From Atractiella rhizophila (taxonomy: Eukaryota), in NCBI GenBank assembly GCA_021432655.1, contig MU271362.1, positions 1 to 51,929 of the forward strand: 51,929 nucleotides of DNA. Reading direction: 5' to 3'. The translations under genes were made by a program, and so were the position numbers. The notes under the pieces are model-generated. The model did not search any database and had not been told where the DNA came from. It saw nothing but the letters and a program-made list of their open reading frames with translations. This document shows positions 12,168-49,349 of this stretch, piece after piece; within the stretch, counting starts at the first letter, position 1, and every line of letters starts with the position of its first letter.

Positions 12168-12483
12168 TTCACCATTTACTCCCTTTTTATATAATGTTTC
12201 TGATGCCCTTCTCCGTACTCTATATGTCGCCAATGAGCAGCATTCTTCTCAACGATCCTAAATCCCTTTCTATCACAAAGCCCCTGCTTCCCTTTCTGAC
12301 GTTCAGAATAGGTCATCCCCGAGGGCTTACCACACATCTGGCTTACCATACATTCGGTTTACCACCTTTGCATCTGTTTGTTGTTGTCCTATGCCCATAT
12401 CTGTGGTAACAGGGCACATCGTATCGAATAGATTGATTGCTCTTAGAACCGATCATCCCCACATGACATGCATTGTAACCTTG

Positions 12484-12972
12484 TGCTAGGGCAAACACGA
12501 TGTGCGGTCACTGATGGGCAATGCGTCTGTAGTGGAGGTAAACCTAAGAGATACTATAGCATGAGAAGACTGACCTGTAGTGGAGGTAAACCTAAGAGAA
12601 TACTCTGAGGTCACCACCACTACTACTCAATGTATATATACATATGTAAAGGCACTGCCATAAACTGTAACGTATGCTTCTTTGAAACATGTAAGGCAAC
12701 TAGTTCAGGAAAGCATTAAAGGGAATACTCGGAAATAAGAGATACTGAACAGTACTACAGAGAAAGGGTAGTAAGGCGAAAACGTAACGGTGCAGACCGG
12801 CGAAATGTATAAGGTTTGCTGAGCGGCGATTCATATGAGAAAGGGGAAATCGGCGAACAGCGCGGGTATGAGCAAAGCGGCGACGAGTAGGCATGTGCTC
12901 CCATGATGTGTTAAACTGGGTCACATGACTTCAGATGGTGCATTTCGGTAATACGTAGGGGCAAGCCCGACA
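12484..12972 (-). mobile_element. Solo LTR, subtype A, of the Ty3/Gypsy family
   Basis: TG...CA ends; reverse-complement similar to the LTR at 14899; perfect 5-bp TSD CCTTG at 12479-12483 and 12973-12977. Confidence 0.93.
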
Positions 12973-13769
12973 CCTTGATGCCCAAAAGTTATAAAAGACC
13001 CCTTGCCTGCACTTGTTCCCCAGACAGATTGTCATTCAAAGCGTTTATCCAGGACACCTCAAACACCTAAGCGTTAAACACCCCCTATTAACATATCAAA
13101 TCTAAGAAAACAATCAAACTGGCTTTAGTTACAGCTGCGTTTCATTGGCTTACAAGATCAACTCCTGCTCCCTGGCAACATCAAGTTGCGGCCATCCGCA
13201 TGAATAATATTGATCCATCCAGTGGGCCAGTCAAAAGTAGAACTCCTAGCCTTATAATGCCCCAGTGATCAACATGCTGACTCAGATATAGGGCAAGCTC
13301 GGTCTGGCACAGCTAAGAAAAGGATACCCCGTACACAGCCCCATCTTGAGGCATTCCGAGCAGGTGGCCATGTGATTAGCACTAGCCCTGACAATGATGG
13401 CTGATGAACCATCATTGCGCACCCACATCTACAGGCAAAGCTGGTGAGGGAGGCAAAGCTCACAAGCCTCACTCTGAACAAGCAGCCAAGGTTCAATGCC
13501 TACCCCATCTCTCCTGCATCAGCAGGACCAATGAAGTTGTAGAGACCAGTGGGTCTTCATCATATCAGTCTGGGTATGCTGAAATATGAAAAGTGACAAG
13601 CTAGCCCCCCAAAACACAATCGTCTTCACCCACTCCCCTTGAAGAGCTCCTGTCACTATTTGCCCACAATTTTGAAAGCAACTGGCAGGATGCCGTCCGA
13701 TCCTCCAAGTTCAAAAGTAGTTACTGGAACCAGTGGGAGAAACAAACTGCAAAAGAGCGCAAAAAGAAC

Positions 13770-14898
13770 ATGAAGAATAAAGTCATGAACGACATGGGTC
13801 TAGAGACAGACAAACCATTCCCTGGTTTCCGCTCAACAGTCTACCCCATCAAGGACCAGAAAGAAAAGAAGTTGGAGGACCTGCTCGAAGGGGAACCGTT
13901 TGATCTCTTCGGTCACCCAGTCAAAGGAACCCACTCCATCATGAAAGGACTCCATTCTGCCACCGACTCACAGTTAGTGTGGGCAGAACATCAATGTAGG
14001 TTCCTGTGCGATTCAGTAGGTCTCGGAAAGACCATGACTGTGACAGGGACCTTAGCCTATCTGCACCACCTTTATAAAACACCTCCACTACCCCAAACCT
14101 GGAGAAGATCCAGGAAGCAATAGTGTACGGGCTCCTCAATTATCAAGGAGAATACAATCCTCCAGCTGGAACAGATGCTGTCAAAAGTCCTCACGATGGT
14201 TTGGGAAGAGATCTACCACCAGAAGTCGAGAGAGATGTAAGGAGAGGTTTCCCAAGATTACTTTGTACTTGTCAAGTCCACAGTCAATCGCATCGCAATG
14301 CTCCTCGAAGACAAGCACGACTGGATCGACCCTTTGAAGAGACGAGGAGAAGACACAATCAAGTACGCCACTCTTCTGAAAGAGAAAGCTAAGATAGCAC
14401 TCACCAGTTACACTTTCCCTCCTTTTCTGAGTAAGCTTCCTACAATCCACATCTAAGCTTATGTTTCATTCAGGAGACACACTCGTCTTTGCGGAGGATG
14501 AGCAGATGAAGAATCTTCCCTCATTATTCATAGTTCCTTATAACCTCATGAACCAATGGAGAACAGAAATTGAGAACAAGATGGATCCCTTCCACCTCTG
14601 GTACCTCATTTATGGCAATGACGTCCATTTCCTTCACAAGAGTCACAAGAATCTGTTGGAGAGAATGAGAAGGACTTCTCCAGCATAGTCGTCATCGTTT
14701 CAGATGGCACCTTGATGACAGAAGTGGCTTGAGAACAGGATTGACATCCACGGGTACGAGAGAAGTCAGAGGCTTGCAAGAAAACACCTTCCATCTTTGA
14801 CTATCGCTTTCGTCTTGCTGGAGTGGACGAACATCACACCTATTGAACAAAGAGGAAACTCACAGCAGCTGTTCACCAGGCATGCTGCCAGGCCCAGG
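13770..14898 (+). pseudogene. SNF2-family ATPase/helicase pseudogene, 5' part
   Basis: Motif I LCDSVGLGKT, motif Ia LFIVPYNLMNQWRTEI, motif II VDEHH near 14820-14840; premature stops and frameshifts; interrupted by the LTR element. Confidence 0.85.
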
Positions 14899-15347
14899 TG
14901 TCAGGCTTGCCCCTACGCATTACCGAAATGCATCATCTGAAGTCATGTGACCTACCTTGCCACGTTCTTAGGGTCACATGTTTACCAATCACCGCTTGCT
15001 CATGCCTGCGCTGTCCGCCGCTTTCCTCTTTCTCACACGAATCGCCGTTCAGCAAACCTTACACATTTCGCCGGCCTGCACCGTTCCCATTTTCGCCCTA
15101 TTGTACTTTCTGACTAGTACCGCTCAGTATATCTTATTTCTGAGTATTCCCTTCATTGCTTTCCTGTTCTAGTTATCTTACGTGTTTCAAGAAACATATG
15201 TTACAGTTTATGGCAGTACTTTACATATGTATATATACATCGAGATGTTGTGGTGGTGACCTTAGAGGATTCTCTTAGGTTTACCTCCACTACAGGTCAG
15301 TCTTCATGTCATATCATGCACTTAGGTTTATCTCCACTACAGACGCA
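14899..15347 (+). repeat. 5' LTR, subtype A, 3'-truncated
   Basis: Starts TGTCAGGCTTGCCCCTACG; similarity to other LTRs stops after CAGACGCA, where the sequence jumps into the RT C-terminus. Confidence 0.9.
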
Positions 15348-17718
15348 GCTTGATCATTTCCAGCAGAGGGATCGAACCGGATCCAGTGAAAGTTGCAGGA
15401 GTGATGGATTGGCCGGAACCAAAAAACATGAAGGAAGTCCAAATGTTCCTCGGTTTCGCTAATTTCTATCGCCGCTTTTGTGACAGATTCAGTCACATTG
15501 CACGACCTTTATATGAACTGACGAAAAATGGGGGTTTCCTGGGTCTGGGGGGTAGATCAACAACGTTCGTTCGCCGCTTTGAAACAGCTCATGACTTCGG
15601 CGCCCGTCTTGGCGCATCCCGAACAAATAGGACGGTTTTGGCTCAAAGTCGACGCGTCAAATTTCGCGACAAGCGCCGTTTTGTCGCAAATGAAGCCTGA
15701 TGGGAAGTTTCATCCTCTCGGTTTCATGTCAAAATCGCTCGACGCTGCCCAGAGGAACTATGACACCTACGACAAAGAAATGCTCGCGATTATGCGTGGA
15801 CTGCAAGAATGGAGACACCTTCTTCAAGGTACTGATGAGCCATTTCTGATCTTGACCAATCACAAAAATCCCGAATATTTCAGAATGCCACAAAAGTTGA
15901 ATCGGCGACAGACGCGCTAGATCACTAAACTTGCATCTTTCAACTTCACTCTTTTACACCATCCCGGACGAAACTCCGCAAAACCAGATGCGCTCAGTCG
16001 GCGACCAGATCACAAACCGGCGACTTGTGACAACTTTGACGTAGTATTACTCCCAGAACGTTTTTTCAACACGGATCGTATCACGATCAACGCGACTGGG
16101 AGCGCGGTTGCGCTCACAACACAAATGTTGGAGTTGAGTATACTGGAACGTGTGAAAAAGGTACCCGAACGGGAAGAACAAGTAGTCAAAGCCTTGAGAG
16201 AGATCCTAGACGAACCAGTCGACGCAGTTCGCCGACGGGAGTGGCAAGAAGTCGATGGCGCTGTCTATTTTCACGGAAAACTCTACATTCCCCGCGACGA
16301 CGAAATTCGCCGCTCGATTTTCCAAGACCTGCACGATTCGCAAATCGCCGGTCATCCAGGCGTAAAATCGACGATGGCTCTCGTAAAAAGGTACTACTGG
16401 TGGCCGGGTTTGGCGCATTACGTTCGCCGCTATGTCGGCGCCTGTCACACTTGCCACAGAACAAAAAACTTTCCTTCCCCACCTGTCGGGTTTTTGCAAC
16501 CAAACGACATTCCCACGCGTCGATGGCAAATTGTCAGCATGGACTTGGTTGGACCACTCCCAGAATCTGGGGGGTTTGACACGATTTTCGTCATAGTAGA
16601 CAGACTCTCAAAACGCACCCATCTCATCCCCACCCATTCGACGATGGATGCAGAAGGCCTTGCAAGACTTTTCGCGATCACGTATGGAAGTTACATGGAC
16701 TTTTCGATGTCGCAATTTTCGATCGAGGCAAAGAGTTTGTGTCCAAATTCACATCCGCGCTTTTTCGCCTATTAGGTATCAAAGGCTCACCATCGACAGC
16801 CTATCACCCGCAAAGTGATGGTCAGACCGAACGCATGAACCAAGAGGTTGAACAATATTTGCGCATTTTCTGCAATCACCTTCAAGATAATTGGGTGGAA
16901 GGACTTCCCAACGCAGAATTTGCGCTCAACAATCGCGTCAGTTCGGCGACAGGCGTAACTCCTTTTTCGCTCGATTGCGGTCAACATCCCCGCATGGCCT
17001 TTGAACCCATCTCCGACGAGGACGTTCCCGCGGCGGCGCAATTCGTCGAAAAGATGCAAATCGCCGACCGGGAAGCACAAGCGGTACTCGAGCAAGCAGC
17101 AGGTCTCATGGCAAAACATTATGACAGAAAACACGCACCGGCGCCCGAATATCACGTAGGCGATTTCGTCTGGTTGAGCGCGAAAAACATCAAATCGACG
17201 AGACCTATCAAAAGTTAGACGACAAATGGCATGGCCCTTTTCGTGTTTTGCAAGTTTTGGGTCCCCTCAACCTTAAACTCGAGTTGCCATCCTCATGGAA
17301 GATACATCCAGTGTTCCATGTAGGTCTAATACGAAAAGTCAACGAAGACGACATCCCGGACAGAGTCCAGTTGCCCAAACCACCTCCGGAATTGGTGAAT
17401 GGAATTGAAGAATGGGAAGTGGAGAAAATTGTCGATGGAAAATGGTTCGGTACCTGAAATAGAGTTTTCAAATATCGCGTTCGATACAAAGGGTATTCAC
17501 CATCTGAAGATGAGTGGATCAACATCACAGATCTAGAAAATTCACAGGATGCTATAAAAGACTATCACACTGCACACCCTCTCGCAGTTCGTCCCGATTC
17601 CATACCGAACTCCGCAAAAATCGCCCAAATGCGCGTTTTCGTAACCTTCGACGAAAACGCGCTGAAGGGTCTTCCTCACTTTAAGGGGTCCAACACCCCT
17701 ATATGCCTTGCCGGGTGA
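15348..17718 (+). pseudogene. pol: pol remnant: RT end, RNase H, integrase, chromodomain
   Basis: FLGFANFYRRF; VDASNFA...YDKEMLAI (RNase H); HDSQIAGHPG...CHTC zinc finger; SMDLV, STAYHPQSDGQTERMNQ (integrase core); GPF and IHPVFHV; EEWEVEKIVD...YRVRYKGYSPSEDEW chromodomain. Several frameshifts and stops; final frame ends at TGA 17716-17718. Confidence 0.95.
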
Positions 17719-17829
17719 AATCCTAGTCTTTGAGACTTAGGTCAAGGCAAGGCGCCGACTTGCTCCTCAACGGGCAAGTCGGCGACTTGGTCGTTGGTGA
17801 GTCCATTCGTCGCCCGTCAAAGACGAATG
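17675..17829 (+). ncRNA. Candidate structured RNA element, unit 1
   Basis: Helices CTCAC/GTGAG, AGGGGT/ACCCCT, GCCTTGCC/GGCAAGGC, CCTA/TAGG, GCCGACTTGC/GCAAGTCGGC, CATTCGTC/GACGAATG; compensatory differences relative to unit 2. Confidence 0.6.
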
Positions 17830-17899
17830 CTCATTGCGTCCTCGCACCATCACCAATGTCGCATTTAAAAATCGCCCTCAATCGCGAGGTCCCCTCCCC

Positions 17900-18059
17900 C
17901 TCACTTTAAGATGTCCTACTCCTCTACATGCCTCGCTGGGTGAATCCCTAGTCACATTGTTGAACATAGGTCTAGGTGAGGCGCCGGTCTGTTCCTCAAC
18001 AGACAGATCGGCGACCGGTTTGTTGGTGAGTTGTCCAGCCCGTTTTCGCAGAATGGACA
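17900..18059 (+). ncRNA. Candidate structured RNA element, unit 2
   Basis: Helices CTCAC/GTGAG, GCCTCGCT/GGTGAGGC, CCTA/TAGG, GCCGGTCTGT/ACAGATCGGC, TGTCCA/TGGACA; conserved loop sequences GGGTGAA, CTCAAC, GCCCGT. Confidence 0.6.
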
Positions 18060-18254
18060 CTTATTACACCAAAACACCACCTGGTCAACTTCGAAAAATT
18101 CCTCAAATTGCGAGGTACACAATGTCTCTTTGCTCCAACAATTTCATCTCTGTCCGAGCGGCGGCTGGTACTTCAGGCACTTTTCGCAAAATTGGCAAAC
18201 CTTACGAAGCAGAAGTTTCTGCTTACTGCAAGCACCACAGAAACTGGGGGGTGT

Positions 18255-18677
18255 TGTCAGGTTTGCATCTTACGCAAATCGGCGCCCGTTCGCCGGATTG
18301 CGTCTACTATCGCCCATTTGCGTTCCCTGCGAATCGGCCCCCGTTCGCCACTGCCTCTCCCGGCGCCCGTTCGCCCATTTGCACCTACATCACCACTTAG
18401 CCCAATTGTGCCTATCCTCCTCTTATTAACTCCGCGTAATCCCAGTGTCACTTCCCCTTTTAGTTCTCTTACATGTTTCATCTGCTCTCCTCTACGCACT
18501 GTGGCAGTGTTATTCCGCTTGTATATATAGATCAGAGAGTAGTGGAGGTGACCTTAGAGTATTCTCTTAGGTTTATATCCACTACAGGTTAGTCTTCATG
18601 TCATATCATGCTCTTAGGTTTATCTCCACTACAGACGCATCGCCTATCGGCGACCGCACATAGTGTCAGCCCTAACA
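18255..18677 (+). repeat. 3' LTR, subtype B
   Basis: TGTCAGGTTTGCATC...GCCCTAACA; highly similar to the LTRs at 19202 (inverted) and 27705. Confidence 0.95.
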
Positions 18678-18800
18678 CCAGGCGGTGCTCGCCATCACTG
18701 CCACGCCACTCTTCACACGTGTGGACGTAAGCACCCTCTTTTTGTAAGACGCAGCTAACAACCAGAAAAGGACATCTTCATGCAGCTCCTATCACTTAGA
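18678..18800 (+). pseudogene. SNF2 pseudogene continuation after the retroelement
   Basis: Removing the element and one CCAGG copy restores ...CCQAQ-AVLAITATPLFTR (helicase motif III TATP), followed by a GTAAG intron. Confidence 0.8.
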
Positions 18801-19201
18801 CTTGTCCTCATGACTCCAGTCATGTATTCAATAGTCGCAGAACTGGCGAGACAGATCCGTTCTGCAGGGTGGAGGGTAGGGCGATGCAGAAGAAGAGGAC
18901 CGTGATATTTGCAGAGAAGCTGAAGCTGCCACGTTGGGTACAGTATCCGAATCCGAATCACCATCCGCCTCCAAAGCCATTCCTTCGCTGCCCAGCAGGG
19001 GTGACATCAGGAGCATGAGACAGGATGTCAAGCACCGATATTGGGAGATCATCGAGGGAGATGATTATTTCAGCCTGAGATGACAAATGTGACACAGTAG
19101 TTCTGTGAGGTTGGACCAAGGTGGGGGAGGGATCAATGGACCTTCTCTTCCAACGATTTTTCCTCCTCCTCGTCCTTATCACATACTTCTTCATTGCCGT
19201 C

Positions 19202-19617
19202 TGTCAGGGCAAACACTATGTATGGTCGCAGACGGGTGATGTGTCTGTAATGGAGGTAAACCTAAGAGAATAGCATTGCACAAGAAGACTAACCTGTAGT
19301 GGAGGTGAACCTAAGAGAATACTCTAAGGTCACCTCCACTACTCTCCGATCTATATATACAAGCAGAATAACACTTGTAGAGGAGAGCAAATGAAACATG
19401 TAAGAGAACTAAAAGGGGAAGTGACACTGGGATTACGCGGAGTTAATAAGAGGAGGATAGGCACAATTGGGCTAAGTGGTGATGTAGGTGCAAATGGGCG
19501 AACGGGCGCCGGGAGAGGCAGTGGCGAACGGGGGCCGATTTGCAGGGAACGCAAATGGGCGATAGTAGACGCAATCCGGCGAACGGGCGCCGATTTGTGT
19601 AAGATGCAAACCTGACA
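19202..19617 (-). mobile_element. Solo LTR, subtype B
   Basis: Reverse complement of the 18255 LTR; TG...CA ends; flanks CCGTC / CCACC are an imperfect TSD. Confidence 0.92.
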
Positions 19618-21003
19618 CCACCATGTTCTCCCCCGTATGCGGGCCAATGAGTTCTTCAAACCCGACACATACCTCATTCAAGTCCCACTTGCTATCAATG
19701 AAGTGTGCATTAACACAGAGGAATGCATAGTGATTTTCTGAAGTCCAGTTGTCAAGTGAGAGATGGATCTTTGTTCCAATAGCCTTTCCTCATGCTTCAG
19801 TCAGCTGTTACAGAAGCTTCCAAATGCGCACCTTTAGATATCTAGCCATTTCTTCCATAGTTTTCAAAGCAAGCTTACATACACGCTCCTTCAGAACCTT
19901 TCAACTCGGTATTTCACTTGTTCTCACTATTCTCTTCTTCCGAAAAGCGGAGTCCTCCGTTTTTGGTATCTGAAATTTCAATCTTGGAGGCAGAAGGTAG
20001 TGTCTACTGAAGATATATTAGAAGTTCCTGAAAGGATGGACTTTCTACAATGCTGAATAGAAGGTCTTCTTTGACAACAAAGTGAGTAAGGAGGTCCTCG
20101 AAGATAGTAGGATTAAAACCCTATGTATCATATGGTCAGCTTCTACCGATTTCTAAAAAAGCACAAACCTGTGATCCATACTTCTTTGCTACTTGTCGCA
20201 GGACATCATCCATTCCTTGGTCCTTTCTTGCAGCTCTGGATCCCTCTTTCGAATAAATCTAGATGGAATATCAGGTGCACATGAGAACACTAAATGAATG
20301 ACTTTGCAGCTTAAAGGGATGAACTGGTATTTTACCTGCTGCCTTCTGCATCTCCTCCTCGGTGATCAACATCTCCTTGTCATGCTTTTCCTTCAAAAAG
20401 CTGAAGAACGACCTGATTGAGCAGCCATGATTTTCCAGGTGATTACGGAGAGTCTTCGTATTGCCATTGCTGGCAGCTAAAGAACGAACGACTCTAGGGC
20501 AATGATTGCACTTAAAGTACTTATCGCCTTCTTTATGCTTCGGTTTGAGATATCCAGGGACATCCTCCCACTTTAAGGAATGGTAGAAGTAATGGACAAC
20601 TGCACGGTGGTGATTGTAGGTGACAACTAAACCCTGTGCTTCCATCCATCAGTATTTTGACAGCAATGTAGTGCACATACAATGTCTTCAGTTGCCGTTT
20701 GGTTAGTGCCCCGGAAAGTTGACTTTGCAACAACGGAGCCATCAGAATGAAGCTGTCCACATTTAGCTATTGTCAGATGTTTCACAGGCACTGTCATGTA
20801 GAGCACACCTTTCTCTGCTTGTTGTCCTTCTTTAAGCCATCGATTTTCAATGGTAAGATCTCTGCAATCTCAGCTGCATCAATATCAATGGGGTCAGGCT
20901 CCAGCCTTGCATCCTCCAGCTCCTCTTGGTGCCCATCCTTCTCATTGACTGTGTAGGCTCCATCTGGTCCTATCGGATCAACGAGACCTTCGGGCAGAAG
21001 CAT
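19618..21003 (-). pseudogene. hAT-superfamily transposase relic with BED zinc finger
   Basis: YFKCNHC...NTKTLRNHLENHGC (BED finger); SLDNWTSENHYAFLCVNAHFIDSKWDL...GFEELIGPHTGENM (start of the hAT catalytic domain); cut by the solo LTR. Confidence 0.85.
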
Positions 21004-27597: not shown

Positions 27598-27704
27598 ATG
27601 ATCATGCTGCATTTTTGCCAAGGTTGAAAAGAGCTGGCCATACAAGGTACCTGAAAGCACGAAGAAGGCATGCACTTGTTATTACTATAATGCAACAATG
27701 TTGG

Positions 27705-28117
27705 TGTCAGGTTTGCATCTTACGCAAATCGGCGCCCCTTCGCCAGATTGTGTCTCCTGCTGCCCATTTGCGTTCCCTGCGAATCGGCGCCCGTTCGCCA
27801 CTCTGCGTCTCCTGTTCGCCGATTTGCGCCTACATCACCACTTAGCCCAATTGTGCTTATCCTCCTCTTATTAACTCCTCGTAATCCCACTGTCACTTCC
27901 CCTTTTAGTTCTCTTACATGTTTCTTCTGCTCTCCTCTACGCTCTGTGGCAGTGTTATTCCGCTTGTATATATAGATCCGAGAGTAGTGGAGGTGACCTT
28001 AGAGTATTCTCTTAGGTTTATCTCCACTACAGGTTAGTCTCCAAATGTCATATCATGCCCTTAGGTTTATCTCCACTAGAGACACATTGGCAACTGCACA
28101 TAGTGTCAGCCCTAACA
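27705..28117 (+). mobile_element. Solo LTR, subtype B
   Basis: TGTCAGGTTTGCATC...GCCCTAACA; no matching TSD (GTTGG vs GGCAA). Confidence 0.92.
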
Positions 28118-34527: not shown

Positions 34528-36958
34528 TGCATACGTCAGTTCTGGAGATCGAGCTGAAAGTATGTAAGCAGTTTAGCTAATTTCGATAAGGCACTGCAGT
34601 CGAAAACCTCACGTGAAAATGCCACAGGTTCAGTTTCTGGTATGTGCTCGAAATACTCATCAGGCTCTGTCGCTGATGATGACCCGACAGAGGTTACTGA
34701 AACCACTTTATCTGGTACCTTTAAAGAGTTAGAATCTGGTGCACATATCGAGCGTAGAGAAGCGGCCGTTTCCCAAATGTGCCATGGCGGCAGTTGATTC
34801 GGTGCAATCCATTTTGGACATGAAGGAGGATCTAGACGGACGCTGAGCACTATTGCAAAGGCAAAAATGAGAATGACCAGACACACGGAAAGATCACATA
34901 CCACTGCGAGGTCGCTTTGGTGACAGATCAGACTTTTCGTAGAGTTTCTTCGATTTGTTAAATACCCAAGCCTGCCTCTCTCCTGTCTTAGGATGGACAA
35001 CATCAAGAGTGCTGCCTTCTCGCGGGGCGATGATGCCACTGATCATTTCTCTCCAAGCCTCAAAATCAACTGGCGTTCGTTCTAGTTGCCTTTGTGCTCT
35101 CACACGCATCCAACGCTCCAACTGGCAAAACCAGAGTACTGAACCTGACGGAAGCTTTGGCTGCACAGCTCACAAAATGTGAAGGAGGAAGGAGCGAACC
35201 GAGAGGGAGGGTACCACCATTGGGCATGTACTCCAGATCTGGATAGAAAGCATGATTGTAACATCGTCCGGACTGTTCTTATCCATCAACTCCATGGGAA
35301 TGGATACTGAAGATGGTAACGCGTGACGCACGCAGACTTTAGCCTGGTGATTGGGTGGTTGAACTGTTGGGTGTTGATTAGCATTGCACTGATTGTTAAA
35401 ACGAGAGCGTACTGTACTGGGCCCGGTAACTGACATGTCTCTCACATTCGCCTTTACAGTAATCCACGGTGTGTTCACCCTGACAAAGAGCATCGTAGCA
35501 AGCAGGGTCGTAAGGTCTTTCGAAATTTGAGGGGTAATTGGCCTCTGCAACCCTTTGGAAACGCAACATGTTACCTCATAGGCGTTGCGAGCAGGATTGT
35601 CCATAATATATGTAATCTCTACGTGACTTCGAACCTTTGATAATCCCACACCACTCCTTCAGTCGACCTTATTCTGAAGTGTCGACATGTTTGCTATCCT
35701 TTCCTCGGGATCCTTGCTCTCCATTCATTCACCAACGAGTTACCTCGAACTTTGAGCCAATCCTGTGCTCAATTTGACCTCCCTTTGTCAATGTTTGGCC
35801 CACCGCATTTAATAACTTTCATATCGCATTTCATTCGACGAATCAAGACTCGATCAGTGCTGATGTGCACCCCAAGCTTCCTTCAACCTGCTGACCCCCT
35901 TATTTCGCGTAGGAGCGGGAGCGGAAGAAGGGGAAGAGTAAGTGGAGACGGAAGCTCGTAACTTCCCCTCGAGCTTTAAGCTGAATCAACTCCCGATCAC
36001 CGTAACCTTCACTATCACGAGCAGGCATTATATAGAGCTGACTAAGGCAGGCTGCAAATCGTGACTGGGTAGCCGCGAAGGCAGTGGCCATGATCCATCA
36101 AAATAAAACCAGCAAATGAGCCCTGAAAGAGCTAGATGGGGTTTGGGGTCTGGGTACGTTGAGATCTGAGGAGTAAGAGGAGAAGCAAGCTTGTCCCATT
36201 ATATCACTATTACAGTCTAGTTCTGCCGAGCCAAGTCAAATTGTTTCGATGGGTTTTTATGAACAACGTCCCAGCTGTGGTAGTCCTACCCACGAATGCT
36301 GAAAGCAGCAGAAGTATATAGCTCTCTGTACAGTTGCATCGGGGGAGACACAGTTGAAGACGAGCAGGAATATATATTCATCATCGAAAGGAAAGAATGC
36401 TAACTAAGAAGCCTGATCGTGCCTTTACCTTTCCATCATCAGTTACGGACCGTCGATGTGTGAAGTTGTAAACGCTATCCAGGCCATTTGATCAAGGTCC
36501 TTGGCAAACCGACATTCCACTCCTTGACCGCCATTGCATATCCTATACGCCGTGGTACATTGAGCGGTGACGATCTCAGAGGAGCCGGAGCGCAATCATT
36601 CAACAAACCGATCAGTGTTGGTTCTACTGTAAGCTTGGCAAGTTCTACTGCAAGGAGAAGGTTTTACCGAAGTAGCCAGGAGAGCTGAGGGGCCGTTATT
36701 CCAACAACGATCCTCATTTAAATCTCCAACCCTTTTCAGTTGTTGGCGCAATGAGCAAAGGTTTACTTTTACCGCCAACCCCACTTTCTCACTGGCTTGT
36801 ATATTGACTGTCGCTGGAACTCTCCTTCACCAGACGGCGTGTTGCCTCCTCCACCTACCTCAGTCCGTCGGTGTCTTGGCTCCTCGCGCTCCTCACTTGG
36901 TTAATATATTGTCTGGACGCGGGCGACGATGTCAGCCGAGATGTATCCCGGAAGTAGG

Positions 36959-36965
36959 TATAAAA
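36959..36965 (+). promoter_or_regulatory. TATA box of the peptide gene (second copy at 39005-39011)
   Basis: TATAAAA beginning 65 nt upstream of the ATG. Confidence 0.6.
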
Positions 36966-37023
36966 GGATCGTTGGCTGAGCCAACCCGCCAAAATCAATT
37001 GATATTAGCTGAAAAGAAACAAA

Positions 37024-37293
37024 ATGAGATTCACTACCGTTACTTCCTTCCTCACTGTCATCCTTGCTGCTCAAGCACTCGTTCCAGTAAGCTGCCTCTT
37101 CAAAAACGCGACGTGTTACTGATATCTATCATAGTGGTGCAACTGCCCTAGTTCGTGGTTTCTCTTACGAATTGCATAACCGATGAATGATTCTTGCACA
37201 ACAGCTGGCGTTGCCTGCTCCGGTGAAGCTTGCACTGCTGCACAGTTGGCTGCTGGATGTACCACGAAGTGGGATACTGGTGTTGGATGTTAA
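37024..37293 (+). CDS. Small secreted cysteine-rich peptide, 55 aa, copy 1
   Basis: Exons 37024-37086, 37135-37150, 37205-37293 with GT-AG introns give MRFTTVTSFLTVILAAQALVPWCNCPTGVACSGEACTAAQLAAGCTTKWDTGVGC; signal peptide plus 6 Cys. Confidence 0.82.
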
Positions 37294-37681
37294 GAGACTG
37301 AAGTTCGTTGATTCCTCCCTCATTGACGTCTGAAGCTCAATTCCGTGCTCTCACCGAATCAAGTGTCAATCAAGCGATGAATCTGATGTAGATTCTGATG
37401 GAATTCATGTTTTGTTGCACGCGTCAAATTGTGCCATCGCTTTGCGACCTGAGTCGGGTCCTACATCAGGACATCGTAATTTGAGGTTGGATGGACACTG
37501 TAGACGAAAACTTCGTACAGGTTTCCATACTAGCAGCTATTCAAACTCATTCCAGCGTCTCCAATACTTCCGAGGCAGCAGCAAGGAGGAGCGATTCTCT
37601 CGATGCTATGAAAGTATCAAGACGTGATCCGAAGTTCAGAGAAGGGTTCTCAAGAGTAGTGATAATTATGCTGCATCTCAA

Positions 37682-38832
37682 CTACCAACAGCTCTCCCCA
37701 GAGGCCGAATAAACGCCATCCTGGTAAGGCCAGATGCGCTCAAACTTTTGGCGCGTCATCTTCTCTTTTGCCTGCTCCCAACATTCTTCTTTGAACTCCT
37801 CCAAGGATTTCTTTGCCTCCTCATATTCGTCCTCGTCCACCCTGCCTTCTCCATCGCCGCAATTAACCAGAAGCTGAGACGCGACAGATTCCCAACCTTC
37901 GATCATATCCACCTCCTCCGATTCGCTCTCAAGTACCGCTCTTTCTTCCTCAGAGAAAGAGACAGGACAGTGTGCACCGTTTCCAAACAAAGCTGGCCAA
38001 ACGTCAGATAGCTGGATCAGGCACCGACGCAAATGGAGGAGGGAATGCTGGTTCCAAGTACCGGTAATAAGGTCAAAGGGACCTTTGAAAATGCAAGCAT
38101 CCTCATCAAACAGCCCCTGGCGCAACTGTGGATAGGGAGACAGGAATGCGAGATATACCTTGTGCAAACGTGCCTGCCACATTTCTCGCAAGACCACCTT
38201 CTGCAGTTCTTCGTCGAGCTCGCGAAGTTTTCGGGTTTCTGCGGCCTTGTAAGGCCGTCTGGTAAGGAGACTAGGCCGGATGCACTACCTTGCCAGTCAA
38301 AATGACGCGGAACCTTCGCCTGTAGGAAGAGCGGTGCGATCGTGGTCGACTGCCAATCAAGGACGGCAGCGATTTTTGGAACAGCTTCGGCGTTGTTGAT
38401 AACAATATTAGCTGGTGATAGATCTGGATGATGGAGTGCTTTTGAGAGGATTGGAGGTGGAATAGTGCTGACAAGCTTTGGAAGTAACTTCTCGAGAGCC
38501 AGAAGTGTGTTGATATGGATATTAGGATCGTTTTGTGAGCCATCACGAAACATGGGATCGGAATTATCATGAGGAGAGGCGGTTTTGAGATACTGGATCT
38601 CATTCCTAATTATTGCGGTGAAGTAATCTATCGGTGAAGTCCCTGAAGCCGTGATTCAGTGAATGTGAGGAGATAATGGAGATGCGCTACAAGGTCCTCT
38701 ATCTAACCCTAACGATCCCTTCCCGGCCCAGAATTCACGACTGACAATGGGACCGATTCTGAAATCGTTGGAAATGTCATCATCCGGGACATCGTCACCG
38801 TCGTACAAGCGACGGCGTTGGAGGGATTCATC
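37682..38832 (-). pseudogene. 5'-truncated, frameshifted duplicate of the kinase-like gene
   Basis: Lacks the N-lobe; 1-bp deletion near 38222 relative to the intact copy. Confidence 0.9.
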
Positions 38833-39069
38833 ACTCACTGGCTTGTATGTTGACTGTCGCTGGAACTCTCCTTCACCAGACGGCGTGTTGCCTCCTCCAC
38901 CTACCTCAGTCCGTCGGTGTCTTGGCTCCTCGCGCTCCTCACTTGGTTAATATATTGTCTGGAGGCGGGCGACGATGTCAGCCGAGATGTATCCCGGAAG
39001 TAGGTATAAAAGGATCGTTGGCTGAGCCAACCCGCCAAAATCAATTGATATTAGCTGAAAAGAAACAAA

Positions 39070-39339
39070 ATGAGATTCACTACCGTTGCTTCCTTCCTCA
39101 CTGTCATCCTTGCTGCTCAAGCACTCGTTCCAGTAAGCTGCCTCTTCAACAACGCGATGTGTTCCTGATATCTATCATAGTGGTGCAACTGCCCTGGTTC
39201 GTGGTTTCTCTTACGAATTGCATAACCGATGAATGATTCTTGCACAACAGCTGGCGTTGCCTGCTCCGGTGAAGCTTGCACTGCTGCCCAGTTGGCTGCT
39301 GGATGTACCACGAAGTGGGATACTGGTGTTGGATGTTAA
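39070..39339 (+). CDS. Small secreted cysteine-rich peptide, 55 aa, copy 2
   Basis: Same three-exon structure; differs by T7A, T27A and one synonymous change. Confidence 0.82.
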
Positions 39340-39729
39340 GAGACTGAAGTTCGTTGATTCCTCCCTCATTGACGTCTGAAGCTCAATTCCGTGCTCTCAC
39401 CGAATCAAGTGTCAATCAAGCGATGAATCTGATGTAGATTCTGATGGAATTCATGTTCTGTTACACGCGTCAAATTGTGCCATCGCTTTGCGACCTGAGT
39501 CGGGTCCTACATCAGGACATCGTAATTTGAGGTTGGATGGACACTGTAGACGAAAACTTCGTACAGGTTTCCATACTAGCAGCTATTCAAACTCATTCCA
39601 CACCGTCTCCAATACTTCCGAGGCAGCAGCAAGGAGGAGCGATTCTCTCGATGCTATGAAAGTATCAAGACGTGATCCGAAGTTCAGAGAAGGGTTCTCA
39701 AGAGTAGTGATAATTATGCTGCATCTCAA

Positions 39730-41662
39730 CTACCAACAGCTCTCCCCAGAGGCCGAATAAACGCCATCCTGGTAAGGCCAGATGCGCTCAAACTTTTGGC
39801 GCGTCATCTTCTCTTTTGCCTGCTCCCAACATTCTTCTTTGAACTCCTCCAAGGATTTCTTTGCCTCCTCATATTCGTCCTCGTCCACCCTGCCTTCTCC
39901 ATCGCCGCAATTAACCAGAAGCTGAGACGCGACAGATTCCCAACCTTCGATCATATCCACCTCCTCCGATTCGCTCTCAAGTACCGCTCTTTCTTCCTCA
40001 GAGAAAGAGACAGGACAGTGTGCACCGTTTCCAAACAAAGCTGGCCAAACGTCAGATAGCTGGATCAGGCATCGGCGCAAATGGAGGAGGGAATGCTGGT
40101 TCCAAGTACCGGTAATAAGGTCAAAGGGACCTTTGAAAATGCAAGCATCCTCATCGAACAGCCCCTGGCGCAACTGTGGATAGGGAGACAGGAATGCGAG
40201 ATATACCTTGTGCAAACGTGCCTGCCACATTTCTCGCAAGACCACCTTCTGCAATTCTTCGTCGAGCTCGTCGAAGTTTTCAGGTTTCTGCGGGCTTGTA
40301 AGGCCGTCCGGTAAGGAGACTAGGCCGGATGCACTACCTTGCCAGTCAAAATGACGCGGAACCTTCGCCTGTAGGAAGAGCGGTGCGATCGTGGTCGACT
40401 GCCAATCAAGGACGGCAGCGATTTTTGGAACAGCTTCGGCGTTGTTGATAACAATATTAGCTGGTGATAGATCTGGATGATGGAGTGCTTTTGAGAGGAT
40501 TGGAGGTGGAATAGTGCTGACAAGCTTTGGAAGTAACTTCTCGAGAGCCAGAAGTGTGTTGATATGGATATTAGGATCGTTTTGTGAGCCATCACGAAAC
40601 ATGGGATCGGAATTATCATGAGGAGAGGCGGTTTTGAGATACTGGATCTCATTCCTAATTATTGCGGTGAAGTAATCTATCGGTGAAGTCCCTGAAGCCG
40701 TGATTCAGTGAATGTGAGGAGATAATGGAGATGCGCTACAAGGTCCTCTATCTAACCCTAACGATCCCTTCCCGGCCCAGAATTCACGACTGACAATGGG
40801 ACCGATTCTGAAATCGTTGGAAATGTCATCATCCGGGACATCGTCACCGTCGTACAAGCGACGGCGTTGGAGGGATTCATCGACGTCCTTTTTGAAATAA
40901 AGACTTCCGATTTGAGAAAACGACAGTGTTGACCATTGATTCTGCATGCCAATGGTATCTTGAATGATCCTGCCCAAGCGTTTGCTATCCAATAATTTTT
41001 CGGGTAAGTGGTGTGTTAGCAGGTCACCTTGCACAAATTCGTAAAGGATGTATTCGGATCCAACGGAGTCACTGGAAGCGTCGCAGTTCCAAGCAACAAC
41101 ATTTGGGACGGGAAGTTTGAATTTTCGGCGGACGAAAGACATCGTAGCAACTTCGCTCTGCGTTAAGAGTTTCTTCGGACCTGCGTTTGGGAAAGGAAGA
41201 CGGGCGACGAGCTTTTGTCCTGCTTGGAAGCTTAGCAGAAAAAGACGGTTGTTGCTTCCTGCAATTCTCAAGTCAGCACTTATGAGAAGGAATGCGCAAG
41301 AGAAAAGAGTACCTTCAGCAAGAGGTTCGAGTGATGTGCAGGCTTCAGGAGTAAGCCCAAGCGCTTTACAGCCTGTGGCTTTCAAGGCATCAACATTGAA
41401 TTCAATGTGACGAAGGTGCTTTTCTGTTGAAGTTACATCAGTCAAGTATCAATTATTAATAGAAAAAAGGTAGCGGAGCACGGTGATCCTCGTTGTAGAG
41501 CCAGCGTGCCTTTGTATCGAAGAGATACGGTTCTGTTCCACTTTTCAGAGTATCTCCCTGAGGACAGACACACTACTCGCCGTGTTTAAGCAACGAGCTC
41601 ACGGCGCGTCTGGCTGTGGTACCAATTGAAAGCGAAACTTGGAAGAGGTGTTTGGACATCAT
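39730..41662 (-). CDS. Protein-kinase-like phosphotransferase (APH-like, Aim9/Fmp29 family), multi-exon
   Basis: FDTKARWLYNE, GSNNRLF, VARLPFPNAGP, SEVATMSFVR, VGSEYILYE, FSQIGSLYF, LDRGPW, HPDLSPANI, VLDWQ. First exon (ATG at 41662) is inferred. Confidence 0.88.
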
Positions 41663-45000: not shown

Positions 45001-45476
45001 AACTGGTTTGTTTTTCGAGAGCGAGAAGGGCGGAAAGCGCTTCTTAGACCTGTAAAATTCTCTATTCAGCATGTTTTGAGCCCTGATAAGTAGAGAAATC
45101 GCGACAAACATTGGGAATGGCTAGCAATTCATATCAGCTCGTCCACCTGGCTCGCGAAATCAGCATGCAGCAGTTAGTTCAGCCTGGCATTTCTGCTCCA
45201 AGGAACAACTACTCACCGAGGTGAGTGTACTACTTGATCCTGATTGAACTCGCGGTGGCGTCGCAGTGGTTTTGCCTGCAGAAATGCGAATCATTGAATA
45301 CTGGCTTCCCAGTAAAAAACAGCTAAAAAAACCTGTTTACTCACCAGTAAAAACCAGGCTCGACGTTCCCGCTTTCTCGCCGGGTATTGGTTCATTTTTA
45401 CCAGCCTTGCCCAGGTAAATTACCGGCACTAAAAACCAGTGGTCAAAAAAAACTGGCCTGGACTGTTCACAGGGCT
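42050..45476. mobile_element. Segment bracketed by ~32-bp inverted repeats: possible non-autonomous TIR element, or two MITE relics
   Basis: AGCCCTGTGGAAAGTCCAGGCCGGTTTTTTGA at 42050 vs TCAAAAAAAACTGGCCTGGACTGTTCACAGGGCT ending 45476; shared subterminal GGTAAATTACC motif; no clean TSD; no transposase recognised. Confidence 0.5.
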
Positions 45477-46429
45477 AATCTACCGGAGCCGCCATCTCTT
45501 CAATTCCTCACTGTCCCGCGTTTAGTCTTCCTTCCCTGCTCAGCCTTCCTCCTTGCCTCCTGTCACCTTGAACCAACCTGACCCAATGCTCTCCTTGCAC
45601 CTCAGAGCTCGAAAGCAGCCCTCGACATTGCTGCTTCTATCACCATGGTTGGCTGTCTACCGAACTAGGAAGGATTGCACGATCAGTATGAGCGAATGGT
45701 TGGGGATAGAAACTGAAGCTTGAATAGTAGTCCGACGATCATCTTTTGCGGATGGATGAAAGGCGGCGCAAGGATCGAGAGCGAGAGGTTGCCTAACCCA
45801 AGCACTCCAATGTACCGGACCTGTCAGTTGCTGCCACCCACCTACGTCGAGGAGTTGAATCAAATTCTGGACGGAGGGAAGTCGTTCCTCATCCGTGATA
45901 ATCCTGGCGGCAGAGCCGGAGTGGAACGAGTGGAGAATAGACGGGAATGCTCACGATCACACAAAGCCTTGATTGCTTAGTCTACACCAACGATTCCGTT
46001 TACGCCAAGGATGCGAAGAACAGAGGGGAATGAGGAGAAGGAAGAGATCGTCAAACGCTTCGTCATCGGTTTGCAAGGTAGACTCACAATCAAGGTTGCA
46101 GATTATCACCACATCTGCTTCTCTTGTGAGTGGAAAGCGGGGAACCGCCCCACGGAAGAGAGGGAGAAGGAGGCAGAGGGCAGATTATACACTTAGTAGC
46201 GAAGGTGGAGGTTGTCATCGATGTCGAGGAGGAAGCGGATCGCAAACTCAACAACAGAATGTACCCGCCAGCAGAGTTCAGACGCAGCTTGGGACGCTTA
46301 TGAGGGACTTGAGCCAGATGAAGAGCAGCTGTTCGCCAATACGACGTGGAGAAGGCCCATGAGACCTTGAAAGGTAGTGAGTGTTTTAACATCTTATGGC
46401 AGGTTGGCTAATTCTAGTGTACCGTGGAA
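45475..46429 (+). repeat. 955-bp direct repeat, copy 1
   Basis: Matches 48395-49349 at offset 2920; one substitution noticed (46398/49318). Confidence 0.95.
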
Positions 46430-47261: not shown

Positions 47262-48359
47262 TTAGAGAGGAAGTATGTGTTGTCGTGGTCCAGCCGGAAC
47301 AATACCATGTGGATTAACCTAAAAGGCTGTCACACATAAGACAGAGAGGATCAAAACTCAACGCACATGTCCATGACGGTTGTAACCGACCTTCAAATGT
47401 TCAAAGTTGGTCGTTGACTTGAATGCATCATTCTTCCAGTAGAGTTGACGAAGCTTCCAACTATGGATAAGTACAGCGGAACATTAGAAGACACTTGCAG
47501 CTTACCCATTTGTGAATGTGAGGATAATCGCTGTCACATTATCAGTTCTCGCAATGCGGAACATATCATACAAGAATACTTGCTGTCGGATGTCCTTGAG
47601 ATTGCACTGGAAAGGAATTCCTCAGCTGTATCATGTAAAATAGACAAAAGTGCACCCTGAAAGTAGAATAATAAGCGGGATCAAAGCGAATCATTGTAAC
47701 GTAAAGTCTGACGTCTGCTTCTGTCAGGCGTCCGCCAACGAGATAATCGCCTCCATTATTCGCAAGTATGCCTTCGATGCGATCCATCGCTTCGAAGAGT
47801 GGATATACGGCTGCTTCATATCCATCTTGATCCTTGGAGAAACCGGCTTTGTACACACCGTTATTAATCTGAGATTCGATTAAAGATAGCTCTGAGAGAG
47901 TCATCGACTTACATCGTTGTAGACCCTGCAGGAAGACAATGAGCGATCTCATTGGAAATACAGCTCGGAAAATCCTACCATTCGTTCAAAGCATCGATTT
48001 CACCCCTCAAATCTTTTGGATACAGGTCTAATTCCTTATTTGTAGCGAACTCGTCGAACTGTGTTGCGCGTCAGCACGCTCAACGGCTCAAGAAGCTTCA
48101 CACCTCTGCATGAAGCATCCTGATGATCTCGCTGCTCTCATTGTTCACAATTTTTCCAAGCTTCCGATCCCATAGCACAGGCACCGTAACTCGGGCACTG
48201 TATCCAGGGGACGCCTTGTCGTATATCTCTCTGAGCATAGTTACGTTTTCCAGAGGCTCCACATCCCACGTTCCGTCTTTTATGGGGTCTTTCTTCGCAT
48301 CGATGTCGTCTGGCCGTTTGAAACCCCATGGAACTTGGGGGTAGACAATCGAGACGCCT
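47262..48359 (-). pseudogene. Glutathionyl-hydroquinone reductase / Ecm4-type GST, 5'-truncated
   Basis: RVTVPVLWD, IVNNESSEIIRML, INNGVYKAGF, LTEADVRLYVTMIRFDPAY, VNPHGIVPAGP; exons for the N-terminal CPWA active site are absent, cut within an intron by repeat copy 2. Confidence 0.9.
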
Positions 48360-48394: not shown

Positions 48395-49349
48395 CTAATC
48401 TACCGGAGCCGCCATCTCTTCAATTCCTCACTGTCCCGCGTTTAGTCTTCCTTCCCTGCTCAGCCTTCCTCCTTGCCTCCTGTCACCTTGAACCAACCTG
48501 ACCCAATGCTCTCCTTGCACCTCAGAGCTCGAAAGCAGCCCTCGACATTGCTGCTTCTATCACCATGGTTGGCTGTCTACCGAACTAGGAAGGATTGCAC
48601 GATCAGTATGAGCGAATGGTTGGGGATAGAAACTGAAGCTTGAATAGTAGTCCGACGATCATCTTTTGCGGATGGATGAAAGGCGGCGCAAGGATCGAGA
48701 GCGAGAGGTTGCCTAACCCAAGCACTCCAATGTACCGGACCTGTCAGTTGCTGCCACCCACCTACGTCGAGGAGTTGAATCAAATTCTGGACGGAGGGAA
48801 GTCGTTCCTCATCCGTGATAATCCTGGCGGCAGAGCCGGAGTGGAACGAGTGGAGAATAGACGGGAATGCTCACGATCACACAAAGCCTTGATTGCTTAG
48901 TCTACACCAACGATTCCGTTTACGCCAAGGATGCGAAGAACAGAGGGGAATGAGGAGAAGGAAGAGATCGTCAAACGCTTCGTCATCGGTTTGCAAGGTA
49001 GACTCACAATCAAGGTTGCAGATTATCACCACATCTGCTTCTCTTGTGAGTGGAAAGCGGGGAACCGCCCCACGGAAGAGAGGGAGAAGGAGGCAGAGGG
49101 CAGATTATACACTTAGTAGCGAAGGTGGAGGTTGTCATCGATGTCGAGGAGGAAGCGGATCGCAAACTCAACAACAGAATGTACCCGCCAGCAGAGTTCA
49201 GACGCAGCTTGGGACGCTTATGAGGGACTTGAGCCAGATGAAGAGCAGCTGTTCGCCAATACGACGTGGAGAAGGCCCATGAGACCTTGAAAGGTAGTGA
49301 GTGTTTTAACATCTTATAGCAGGTTGGCTAATTCTAGTGTACCGTGGAA
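48395..49349 (+). repeat. 955-bp direct repeat, copy 2
   Basis: See copy 1. Confidence 0.95.

Follow-up and report, generated by a model that had tools for sequence, protein, structure and literature searches.

A degenerate LTR retrotransposon of the basidiomycete Atractiella rhizophila carries, between its pol gene and its 3' long terminal repeat (LTR), a segment that occurs twice in tandem and folds extensively in silico. The question raised by this locus is whether the repeated segment represents an RNA structure maintained by selection or the neutral outcome of a duplication. The window analyzed here comprises 51,929 nt (contig MU271362.1, assembly GCA_021432655.1, positions 1-51,929, forward strand). 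The original prediction described two covarying units, each spanning from a UGA to an AUG sequestered in a hairpin, and suggested a conserved functional RNA, such as an internal-initiation or reinitiation element, a packaging or dimerisation signal, a nuclease-resistant fold or a ribozyme.

Carrier element and organization of the duplicated region

The carrier element is a dead, 5'-truncated copy of a Ty3/gypsy chromovirus. Its pol remnant (15326-17718, plus strand), recognized from the open reading frame list, Pfam matches and 102 chromovirus pol relatives (30-49% identity), comprises the end of the reverse transcriptase, RNase H, the integrase zinc finger and core, an SH3-like domain and a chromodomain, and it contains frameshifts and an in-frame stop at 17455-17457. 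Pfam matches (RT_RNaseH_2, RT_RNaseH, Integrase_H2C2, SH3_Tf2-1, Chromo) include the chromovirus order RT_RNaseH_2, Integrase_H2C2, SH3_Tf2-1, Chromo, and the 3' LTR has TG..CA ends. The 102 chromovirus pols were retrieved with the pol tail, with X at its stop, as the query, the best being at most 49% identical; the 86-aa tail alone, used as a protein query, retrieved no relatives. Among these relatives, pol ends a median of approximately 17 residues past the chromodomain, and the 45-residue tail found here is uninformative because 32 of the 102 have tails of 45 residues or more. The 3' LTR (TGTT...AACA; 18252-18677, plus strand) was delimited by self-blast (90-91% identity) and by direct reading of its flanks, and further copies at 19202-19622 (minus strand) and 27702-28117 (plus strand) both look like solo LTRs. 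The polypurine tract (AGAAACUGGGGGG; 18239-18251, plus strand), immediately 5' of the 3' LTR, was read from the sequence and assigned by its position relative to the LTR start.

The duplicated segment lies downstream of the chromodomain end of pol and upstream of the polypurine tract and 3' LTR. Alignment of 17674-17802 with 17899-18031 by blastn (75.4% identity, 134 columns, E 4.8e-19) confirms two diverged tandem units; the predicted unit length of approximately 155 nt, however, corresponds to the structured core, whereas the repeat period is approximately 225 nt. The whole tandem duplication (17616-18120), which Tandem Repeats Finder did not report, consists of two structured cores and three copies of a spacer motif, all read on the plus strand. 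Spacer copy 0 (17616-17674), beginning with AAAAAUCGCC and lying within the pol tail frame of the window copy, precedes the unit 1 core (17675-17829), which was delimited by its minimum free energy (MFE) fold and the same helices in the RNAalifold consensus. Spacer copy 1 (17830-17899) separates it from the unit 2 core (17900-18059), which was delimited from the pair table, the family letters at private sites and the MFE, and spacer copy 2 (18060-18120) follows, with the third spacer motif beginning at 18094 and the array ending at 18120. From pol to the 3' LTR, the order is head to tail, with two full units and a third spacer motif, compared with the at least three copies by which the available text of PMC11963269 defines such arrays. 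The perfect 12-bp hairpin reported ahead of unit 1 (17631-17662) is real: it is formed by a private insertion in spacer copy 0, corresponds to a 26-column gap in the other spacer of the alignment, and also forms when the whole 3' UTR is folded.

This hairpin introduces the principal rival explanation, namely that the 3' UTR underwent a neutral tandem duplication, in which intra-strand template switching, at reverse transcription or at replication, produced the hairpins and kept them matched, without selection on an RNA function. Plant Ty3/gypsy lineages often carry tandem repeats of unknown function between pol and the 3' LTR (PMC11963269), and template switching is able to create and maintain hairpins without selection (PMC8794818). 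The 12-bp hairpin, private to one spacer, is of the type that such events produce.

Predicted fold of the units

Both cores are predicted to form a junction closed by the outer helix P1 (CUCACU/GGUGAG), containing hairpin H2, the long H3 and H4, and followed by hairpin H5. In unit 1, P1 is formed by 17675-80/17796-17801, H2 by 17684-17700, H3 by 17705-17753 (inner stem 17722-17741), H4 by 17754-17783 and H5 by 17804-17829; the corresponding positions in unit 2 are 17900-05/18025-30, 17909-17925, 17930-17982, 17983-18012 and 18032-18059. P1 and H2 are part of the fold beyond the helices originally named. H3 has the internal loop GGGUGAA, and H4 comprises 10-12 bp with the loop CUCAAC. H5 forms hairpins of 8 bp and 6 bp, both presenting the loop GCCCGU, with arms that are not alignable between the units (9 of 29 columns identical) and a 6-bp stem that shuffled sequences reached in 622 of 20000 trials. 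The RNAalifold consensus independently gave the same helices, and, with the whole 3' UTR folded, P1 is absent from the minimum-energy structure.

The MFE of unit 1 is -73.1 kcal/mol (z -6.49), which none of 200 shuffles matched; the window copy's unit 2 folds modestly (-55.9 kcal/mol, z -2.23), and the whole 651-nt 3' UTR has a z of -9.06 (20 shuffles). Since the minus strand folds nearly as well (-72.8 and -53.4 kcal/mol), folding energy is not decisive for the strand, and the near equality of the strands is compatible with a neutral origin of the hairpins. The loop-loop pairings suggested originally are found as complementarity in both units, between the H3 tip and the H4 loop, and between GGGU of the H3 internal loop and GCCC of the H5 loop; these candidate contacts show complementarity in each unit but no covariation. 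The first of them is kept despite an indel in the H3 tip, with 5 Watson-Crick pairs in unit 1 and 6 in unit 2, pairing that shuffled H3 tips reached in 1269 and 157 of 20000 trials, respectively. This retention across an indel argues against a purely neutral duplication.

Compensatory changes between the units

The units are 26% diverged, with 97 of 131 core columns identical (74%), and the core is better kept than the less conserved spacer, in which copies 1 and 2 share 39 of 73 columns. Between the units, unpaired motifs of 7-8 nt are unchanged, and the longest blocks of exact conservation (12 and 10 nt) are the two strands of P1; P1, being invariant, is therefore without covariation support. 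The named helices are present and have been kept by compensatory changes, as originally predicted. H3 reads GCCUUGCC/GGCAAGGC in unit 1 and GCCUCGCU/GGUGAGGC in unit 2 (one doubly changed pair and two wobble changes), and H4 reads GCCGACUUGC/GCAAGUCGGC in unit 1 and GCCGGUCUGU/ACAGAUCGGC in unit 2 (three double changes and one wobble change).

The main pairing test used 100000 random placements of the 30 differences between units 1 and 2 as the null and compares just two sequences of shared ancestry, with all data coming from one family; here, 35 of the 39 unit-1 pairs survive in unit 2 (null mean 28.7, P = 0.0036) and five pairs, distributed across three separate helices, are changed on both sides (null mean 1.04, P = 0.0013). 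With the differences confined to paired columns, the probabilities are 0.018 for pairs kept and 0.0005 for doubly changed pairs. In the true alignment, 96.1% of cells are paired, compared with 27.6-42.1% when partners are slid by 1-3 columns, and these slid-partner controls contain 0-1 doubly changed pairs instead of five.

Paired and unpaired columns differ at about equal rates (17/78 and 13/49), a similarity in favor of neutral duplication. That explanation does not readily account for five doubly changed pairs over three helices, nor for the single G.U pair in H4 of unit 2, where one switch would be expected to leave a perfect copy of the partner arm. It also sits poorly with unpaired motifs that stayed exact while the spacer drifted, and with the one-sided changes not private to the window copy, all three of which give G.U on the plus strand only, as fits a plus-strand RNA. 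On balance, we regard a neutral origin as doubtful, although still a realistic alternative.

Variation among family copies

Family variation was read from genome-run contigs (X1, X3 and X6), with 40 of the 82 variable sites listed. These contigs reveal a high-copy family carrying both units, and the bridging of both units by at least five listed X1 contig pieces and one X3 contig indicates that the duplication is older than the spread of the family. Three private changes (17912, 17977, 18001) weaken the helices of unit 2 in the window copy; at each of these sites, essentially all other contigs have the pairing base. Two of these (17912 T>G and 18001 A>G), private with respect to all covering contigs, represent damage of a dead copy and explain two of the four broken pairs in unit 2.

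A compensated H4 pair occurs within the family as well: 17763 C>T and 17774 G>A, together on one X6 contig, convert C-G to U-A, and in X1 both changes are found in 2 contigs at an identical depth of 3547. In addition, 17777 A>G yields a U.G pair in five contigs. Pair-breaking variants comprise 17734 G>T in three X1 contigs (4128/5446 depth units) and 17829 G>A in X3, and a divergent X6 contig has two of six H5 pairs broken and the P1 pair at 18026 lost. Of the motifs GGGTGAA, CTCAAC and GCCCGT, all described as invariant on the basis of the two units, CTCAAC and GCCCGT vary in the family (18000 C>T, and 17815 C>T in five contigs, respectively).

The helices were kept by compensatory change during sequence drift, in a lineage later amplified to high copy. 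The claim of a conserved functional RNA structure gains support from the compensated helices and from the presence of both units in many family copies, and the element probably depended on the shape of this RNA.

Translation, splicing and RNA decay

In the window copy, the pol frame does end at TGA 17716-17718, inside GGGTGAA of unit 1, and ATGs are present at 17827 and 18053, each in the 3' arm of H5. In favor of a translation element (internal initiation, reinitiation or readthrough) or a self-cleaving ribozyme, one conserved motif contains a UGA and both units have an AUG in their last stem. Nevertheless, a functional span from UGA to AUG did not hold up across copies. One-nucleotide insertions shift the pol frame to TAA 17682-17684 in eight X1 contigs (+C after 17614 in five, +A after 17615 in three) and in the X6 contig, and a second in-frame stop lies four codons past the UGA. 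AUG 17827 opens a frame of only 13 codons and is AUA in the sole X3 contig. The frame from 18053 crosses the polypurine tract into the LTR, is disrupted by indels in several contigs, and has LTR-derived pieces as its only database relatives. Used as a protein query, the 199-aa frame over unit 2 matched only two proteins, both under the name of Atractiella rhizophila and via the LTR part only. On the reading favored below, the UGA and AUGs within the motifs are incidental, and internal initiation and reinitiation are unlikely. No Rfam ribozyme family was matched even at E <= 10. A translation element or ribozyme, taken together, appears extremely improbable.

The conserved blocks could also be read as splicing signals instead of a helix, with GGUGAGU as the 5' splice site and CCUCACUUUAAG as the branch point and 3' splice site. 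The cores would then be separated by an intron of 114 nt (17797-17910). GUGAGU agrees with the consensus for fungal 5' splice sites, fungal introns typically have such spacing, and the AAG of unit 2 is preceded by a run rich in pyrimidines. Against this, AAG makes a poor 3' splice site, and CUCAC deviates from CURAY, the branch consensus. Two joints were reported among the contigs, neither with these borders or with GT..AG ends, and splicing would leave the compensated helices unexplained. We consider it very improbable.

Another reading assigns the units to RNA decay, either as an exonuclease-resistant fold leaving a stable 3' fragment or as a post-stop shield against nonsense-mediated decay. 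The long 3' UTR, exceeding 500 nt ahead of the LTR, and duplicated compact junction-type folds with candidate pseudoknots that begin at the pol stop are consistent with this. In contrast, no Rfam flavivirus or other resistant-RNA family was matched at E <= 10, and the known ring-type resistant folds are smaller than the fold described here and do not resemble it. Flavivirus 3' UTRs carry xrRNA and dumbbell structures as tandem, diverged junction-plus-pseudoknot copies beginning soon past the stop codon. The units resemble them as duplicated structured 3' UTR modules (PMC12081666) but lack an Rfam match and differ in size and helix plan, and we consider decay blocking quite improbable.

No Rfam 15 family (ribozymes, xrRNA, tRNA-like, snRNA, snoRNA and others) reached its gathering score. 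The cmscan of 16500-19500 at E <= 10 gave six weak matches, none near that threshold, and the only one inside a unit was mir-1677 on the minus strand (18 bits vs 84). A covariance model of the two units found no match in a chromovirus locus of the viral collection (L004; integrase 43% identical) and no further match in the rest of the window. DNA-pattern searches returned no relatives in viral contigs (two patterns) or in prokaryote genome contigs. Three metagenome loci obtained with a DNA pattern were rejected as unrelated high-GC sequences without blastn similarity to 15301-18700.

Possible link to reverse transcription priming

The exact conservation of both P1 strands could also reflect priming. 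The P1 3' strand (UGGUGAGU...) would then be a copy of the primer-binding site, held by a CUCAC that mimics the tRNA 3' end (...CUCACCA), and the 3' UTR would serve as a binding site for the primer tRNA or for the initiation complex, or would guide strand transfer. Yeast Ty3 has a two-part primer-binding site, which is loosely similar to this arrangement. A 137-nt X6 contig consists of 99 nt ending at the LTR 3' terminus, one G, and 38 nt that match 17795-17832 with three differences; a primer-binding site would sit at this junction and likewise start with TGG, and in other Ty3/gypsy elements TGGTGAG/C... has been reported as a primer site of the tRNA-Trp type (PMC2582038).

This junction, however, comes from a single low-depth contig, which could be a nested LTR insertion that landed by chance before TGG or a deletion derivative, and no such junction occurs among the 8 of 18 X1 loose ends listed. 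The window contains no 5' LTR plus internal region and, according to ARAGORN, no tRNA gene over its whole length. Past approximately 13 nt, the sequence misfits the canonical tRNA T arm, and the units have no significant similarity to the LTR (for the best match, 18 of 300 shuffles were as good). A priming link is unlikely in our estimation; if true, full-length copies would have a 5' LTR followed by TGGTGAGUCC..., and the host would have a tRNA ending in ...CUCACCA.

There is also a slim prospect that the units mimic the primer-tRNA/primer-binding-site duplex within the element's own RNA. Embedded in a kissing-loop fold, such a duplex would allow the 3' end of the genomic RNA to capture the primer tRNA, reverse transcriptase or the 5' initiation complex. 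Such a mimic would be a chromovirus counterpart of the Ty3 two-part primer site and a source of short LTR-primer-site-tail derivatives.

Discussion

We hypothesize, at roughly even odds, that an old tandem duplication gave rise to the two units, each a copy of a selected, family-specific, cis-acting multi-helix fold in the 3' UTR of the genomic RNA. The module would be part of the 3' untranslated region of the plus-strand, full-length RNA, where the conserved unpaired motifs displayed on helices may serve as binding sites for a host or element protein, two copies possibly providing higher avidity. By analogy, the fold may act post-transcriptionally on unspliced RNA, in its export and cytoplasmic use, its stability, or its packaging and dimerisation. 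This proposed action is modelled on transport elements located between the last gene and the 3' LTR in simple retroviruses and murine LTR retrotransposons, and the units share with elements of the MTE, RTE and CTE kind a location in this untranslated stretch, which here runs from the pol stop (17718) to the polypurine tract (18239) and LTR (18252).

CTE and DR elements have an architecture of repeated binding sites, the CTE being one long stem with two mirrored internal loops. In MPMV (CTE) and in avian sarcoma/leukosis viruses (DR), structured RNA downstream of the last reading frame and ahead of the 3' LTR acts on unspliced RNA (PMC4829213, PMC3856414, PMC11379458), and the units described here share the repeated structured RNA in this position. 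They differ from the CTE in being branched junctions, in which no NXF1-type binding motif was identified. To function, MusD MTE and IAP RTE depend on a pseudoknot and on a kissing contact that a hairpin loop makes with an internal loop (PMC3362945). The chromovirus units resemble these cis-acting multi-helix LTR-retroelement RNAs by description, with candidate contacts of both kinds ahead of the 3' LTR, but belong to a fungal host and form a duplicated module, and their contacts and any role in export are putative.

Plant Ty3/gypsy elements (Retand, Tat/Ogre, CRM) contain family-specific tandem repeats at the same position, between pol and the 3' LTR, with unknown origin and function (PMC11963269; PMC3648361, PMC7004042). 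In contrast, only two 225-nt units and a spacer stub are found here, diverged by 26%, strongly folded and with compensated helices. The plant arrays have been described as DNA repeats, and the available text of PMC11963269 makes no mention of secondary structure, stem-loops or hairpins (0 matches).

Structured cis elements for the export or packaging of unspliced RNA are already well studied in retroviruses and two mouse retrotransposons, and in the literature searched none was found for a fungal LTR retrotransposon. So far, the predicted fold concerns one family in one species. As a selected 3' UTR structure, it would give a handle on the expression and packaging of intron-poor genomic RNA in an intron-rich basidiomycete host and, if portable, would offer fungal expression work a candidate RNA module.

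Carrier element and tandem arrangement

The two RNA units are carried by a decayed, 5'-truncated chromovirus (Ty3/gypsy) whose pol remnant (15326-17718, plus strand; Pfam and ORF list) shows the Pfam domain order RNase H, integrase zinc finger, Tf2-type SH3 domain, and chromodomain. In the window copy, frameshifts and an in-frame stop (17455-17457) disrupt pol. The polypurine tract (18239-18251) adjoins a 426-nt LTR (18252-18677). The 520 nt from the pol stop to the polypurine tract form a tandem duplication: blastn aligned 17674-17802 with 17899-18031 at 75.4% identity, and a spacer motif beginning with AAAAAU occurs three times (17616, 17867, and 18094), which results in a repeat period of ~225 nt, comprising a 155-nt structured core and a 70-nt spacer. 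The original prediction had described tandem units of ~155 nt; the helices, motifs, stop, and AUGs all lie where it had placed them, while 155 nt is the length of the core alone. A private 26-nt insertion in the first spacer produces a perfect 12-bp hairpin (17631-17662).

Further LTR copies are located at 19202-19622 (minus strand) and 27702-28117 (plus strand), and the window contains no 5' LTR followed by an internal region. Inverted LTR fragments lie around and beside the truncated element (12479-12975 and 14896-15347; 18252-18677 on the plus strand versus 19202-19622 on the minus strand), and nested insertions make up this region. Every LTR copy contains a near-perfect hairpin of ~47 nt (19296-19342, plus strand; other copies at 12551-12642, 15228-15347, 18520-18639, and 27965-28086), which, being just 3' of a TATA-like GTATATATAG, would sit at or near the transcript 5' end; in Rfam, it resembled mir-iab-4 alone, and weakly (28.5 bits versus a gathering score of 73). 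At the U3 start (18279-18375), a motif of ~14 nt, GGCGCCCGTTCGCC, is present three times, twice exactly and in the middle copy with one base off. In both units, the loop of helix H5 displays the GCCCGT core of this motif as well, and the U3 motifs and H5 loops together give four plus-strand GCCCGT within 17812-18370.

Elsewhere in the window, direct repeats of 99-100% identity, ~2.05 kb and ~2.92 kb apart (36788-40571; 45475-45774 and 48395-48694), are recent segmental or tandem duplications whose frames have no Pfam match, and a 26-nt repeat occurs in four to five tandem copies (50098-50201). The sole ordinary host-gene signal among 42 frames scanned was a minus-strand frame with a glutathione S-transferase C-terminal domain (47569-47985; Pfam, E 2.6e-9).

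Predicted fold and retention of pairing between the units

Unit 1 (core 17675-17829) was predicted to fold at -73.1 kcal/mol (z -6.49), with P1 (CUCACU/GGUGAG) enclosing three helices: H2; a long H3, which has an inner stem and an internal loop; and an H4 of 10-12 bp. H5 follows outside P1. RNAalifold applied to both cores gave the same helices, and folding of the whole 3' UTR (z -9.06) retained H2-H5 of unit 1, P1 being absent. Unit 2 (core 17900-18059) folds more weakly in the window copy (z -2.23) because of changes at 17912, 17977, and 18001, which are private injuries of this dead copy, since essentially all other copies (contigs) carry a pairing base there. Folding energy by itself did not separate the plus from the minus strand.

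The main rival to a selected fold is a neutral 3' UTR duplication whose hairpins would be kept matched by template switching. Such duplications are common in plant Ty3/gypsy elements (PMC11963269), template switching is able to keep hairpins matched (PMC8794818), and the private 12-bp hairpin shows that such events do occur in the same region. With the structure fixed from unit 1 only, unit 2 retained 35 of the 39 pairs, including five with both bases changed (three in H4 and one each in H2 and H3), compared to means of 28.7 retained pairs and 1.04 double changes when the same 30 differences (20 transitions and 10 transversions) were placed randomly (P = 0.0036 and 0.0013, respectively). Restriction to the 17 differences in paired columns gave P = 0.018 for retained pairs and 0.0005 for double changes, and when the partners were slid by 1-3 columns, pairing was 27.6-42.1% instead of 96.1%, with 0-1 double changes instead of five. 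Retention of the helices through compensatory change, as originally predicted, is confirmed.

Although just 9 of 29 columns are identical between the H5 arms of the two units, a hairpin presenting GCCCGU forms in each; its 6-bp stem was reached by 622 of 20000 shuffles. Complementarity between the H3 tip and the H4 loop is retained despite a 4-nt indel, with five Watson-Crick pairs in unit 1 and six in unit 2 (1269 and 157 of 20000 shuffles, respectively); the data had already been seen when these two shuffle tests were set up. Leaving aside changes private to the window copy, the three one-sided changes all result in G.U on the plus strand, consistent with a plus-strand fold.

Variation among family copies

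Contigs of a genome run (X1) yielded 259 pieces on 17440-18280, with identity to the window of at least 99% (108 pieces), 95-99% (86), 90-95% (50), or lower (15); the family is high-copy and fairly young. At least five of the listed X1 pieces, together with one rhizosphere-run contig, bridge the two units; the duplication therefore predates the family spread, and the 26% divergence of the units thus arose in a lineage still able to move.

Within-family variation, drawn from 40 of the 82 variable sites, is mixed, some of it for the structure and some against. Among the former, an H4 pair changes from C-G to U-A through 17763 C>T plus 17774 G>A, both being present on a single contig of another run, X6, and both in two X1 contigs at equal depth; in addition, 17777 A>G creates a U.G pair in five contigs, and 17815 C>T would retain G.U in the proposed GGGU/GCCC contact. 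Among the latter, 17734 G>T disrupts an inner H3 pair in contigs accounting for most of the depth at that site, the final H5 pair is opened by 17829 G>A, and unit 2 of one divergent X6 contig loses a P1 pair along with two of its six H5 pairs.

Two X1 contigs diverge from the window behind 18032, after ...GGTGAGTT, with new sequence beginning ACTCACC; as this is the exact complement of GGTGAGT, the P1 3' strand would form a local hairpin in those variant copies.

Translation, primer-site, and splice readings

A translation role for the UGA-to-AUG span, also part of the original prediction, fails on the stop, AUG, and frame details. In eight X1 contigs, 1-nt insertions at 17614/17615 shift the pol stop to a TAA at 17682-17684, and the frame past the UGA reaches its next stop after four codons. 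The frame from the first AUG, which one contig lacks, is 13 codons long, and the frame of the second enters the LTR and is disrupted by indels in several contigs. Relatives of this second frame were LTR pieces only, its LTR-derived part matching two Atractiella rhizophila proteins.

In a 137-nt X6 contig, the 3' end of the family LTR is followed by one G and 38 nt matching 17795-17832, a stretch comprising the P1 3' strand and H5 of unit 1. The junction is at the place of a primer-binding site, and the match begins with TGG. It may represent a true 5' junction or a short deletion derivative, in which case the conserved P1 3' strand would be a primer-binding-site copy, its partner CUCAC resembling a tRNA 3' end; alternatively, it may be a nested insertion. 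Similarity of the units to the LTR was not significant, and ARAGORN found no tRNA. A 5' splice-site reading of GGUGAGU is also possible, but splicing is supported by no contig joint.

Potential role of the units

Rfam gave no match to the units even at E <= 10, a covariance model built from both found only these units in the window and one distant chromovirus locus searched, and for fungal LTR retrotransposons, no structured 3' UTR RNA module with compensated helices came up in our literature search. Two units of one family supply this evidence, which is real but thin, and the functional role is one that we infer. In place and style, the nearest known functional relatives would be the MusD/IAP transport elements and, in simple retroviruses, the CTE/direct-repeat elements; the MusD element requires kissing between a loop and an internal loop together with a pseudoknot (PMC3362945). 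The best-supported reading is that the units are a selected plus-strand RNA fold in the genomic-RNA 3' UTR, kept as two copies, which may bind protein and act post-transcriptionally in export, stability, or packaging.
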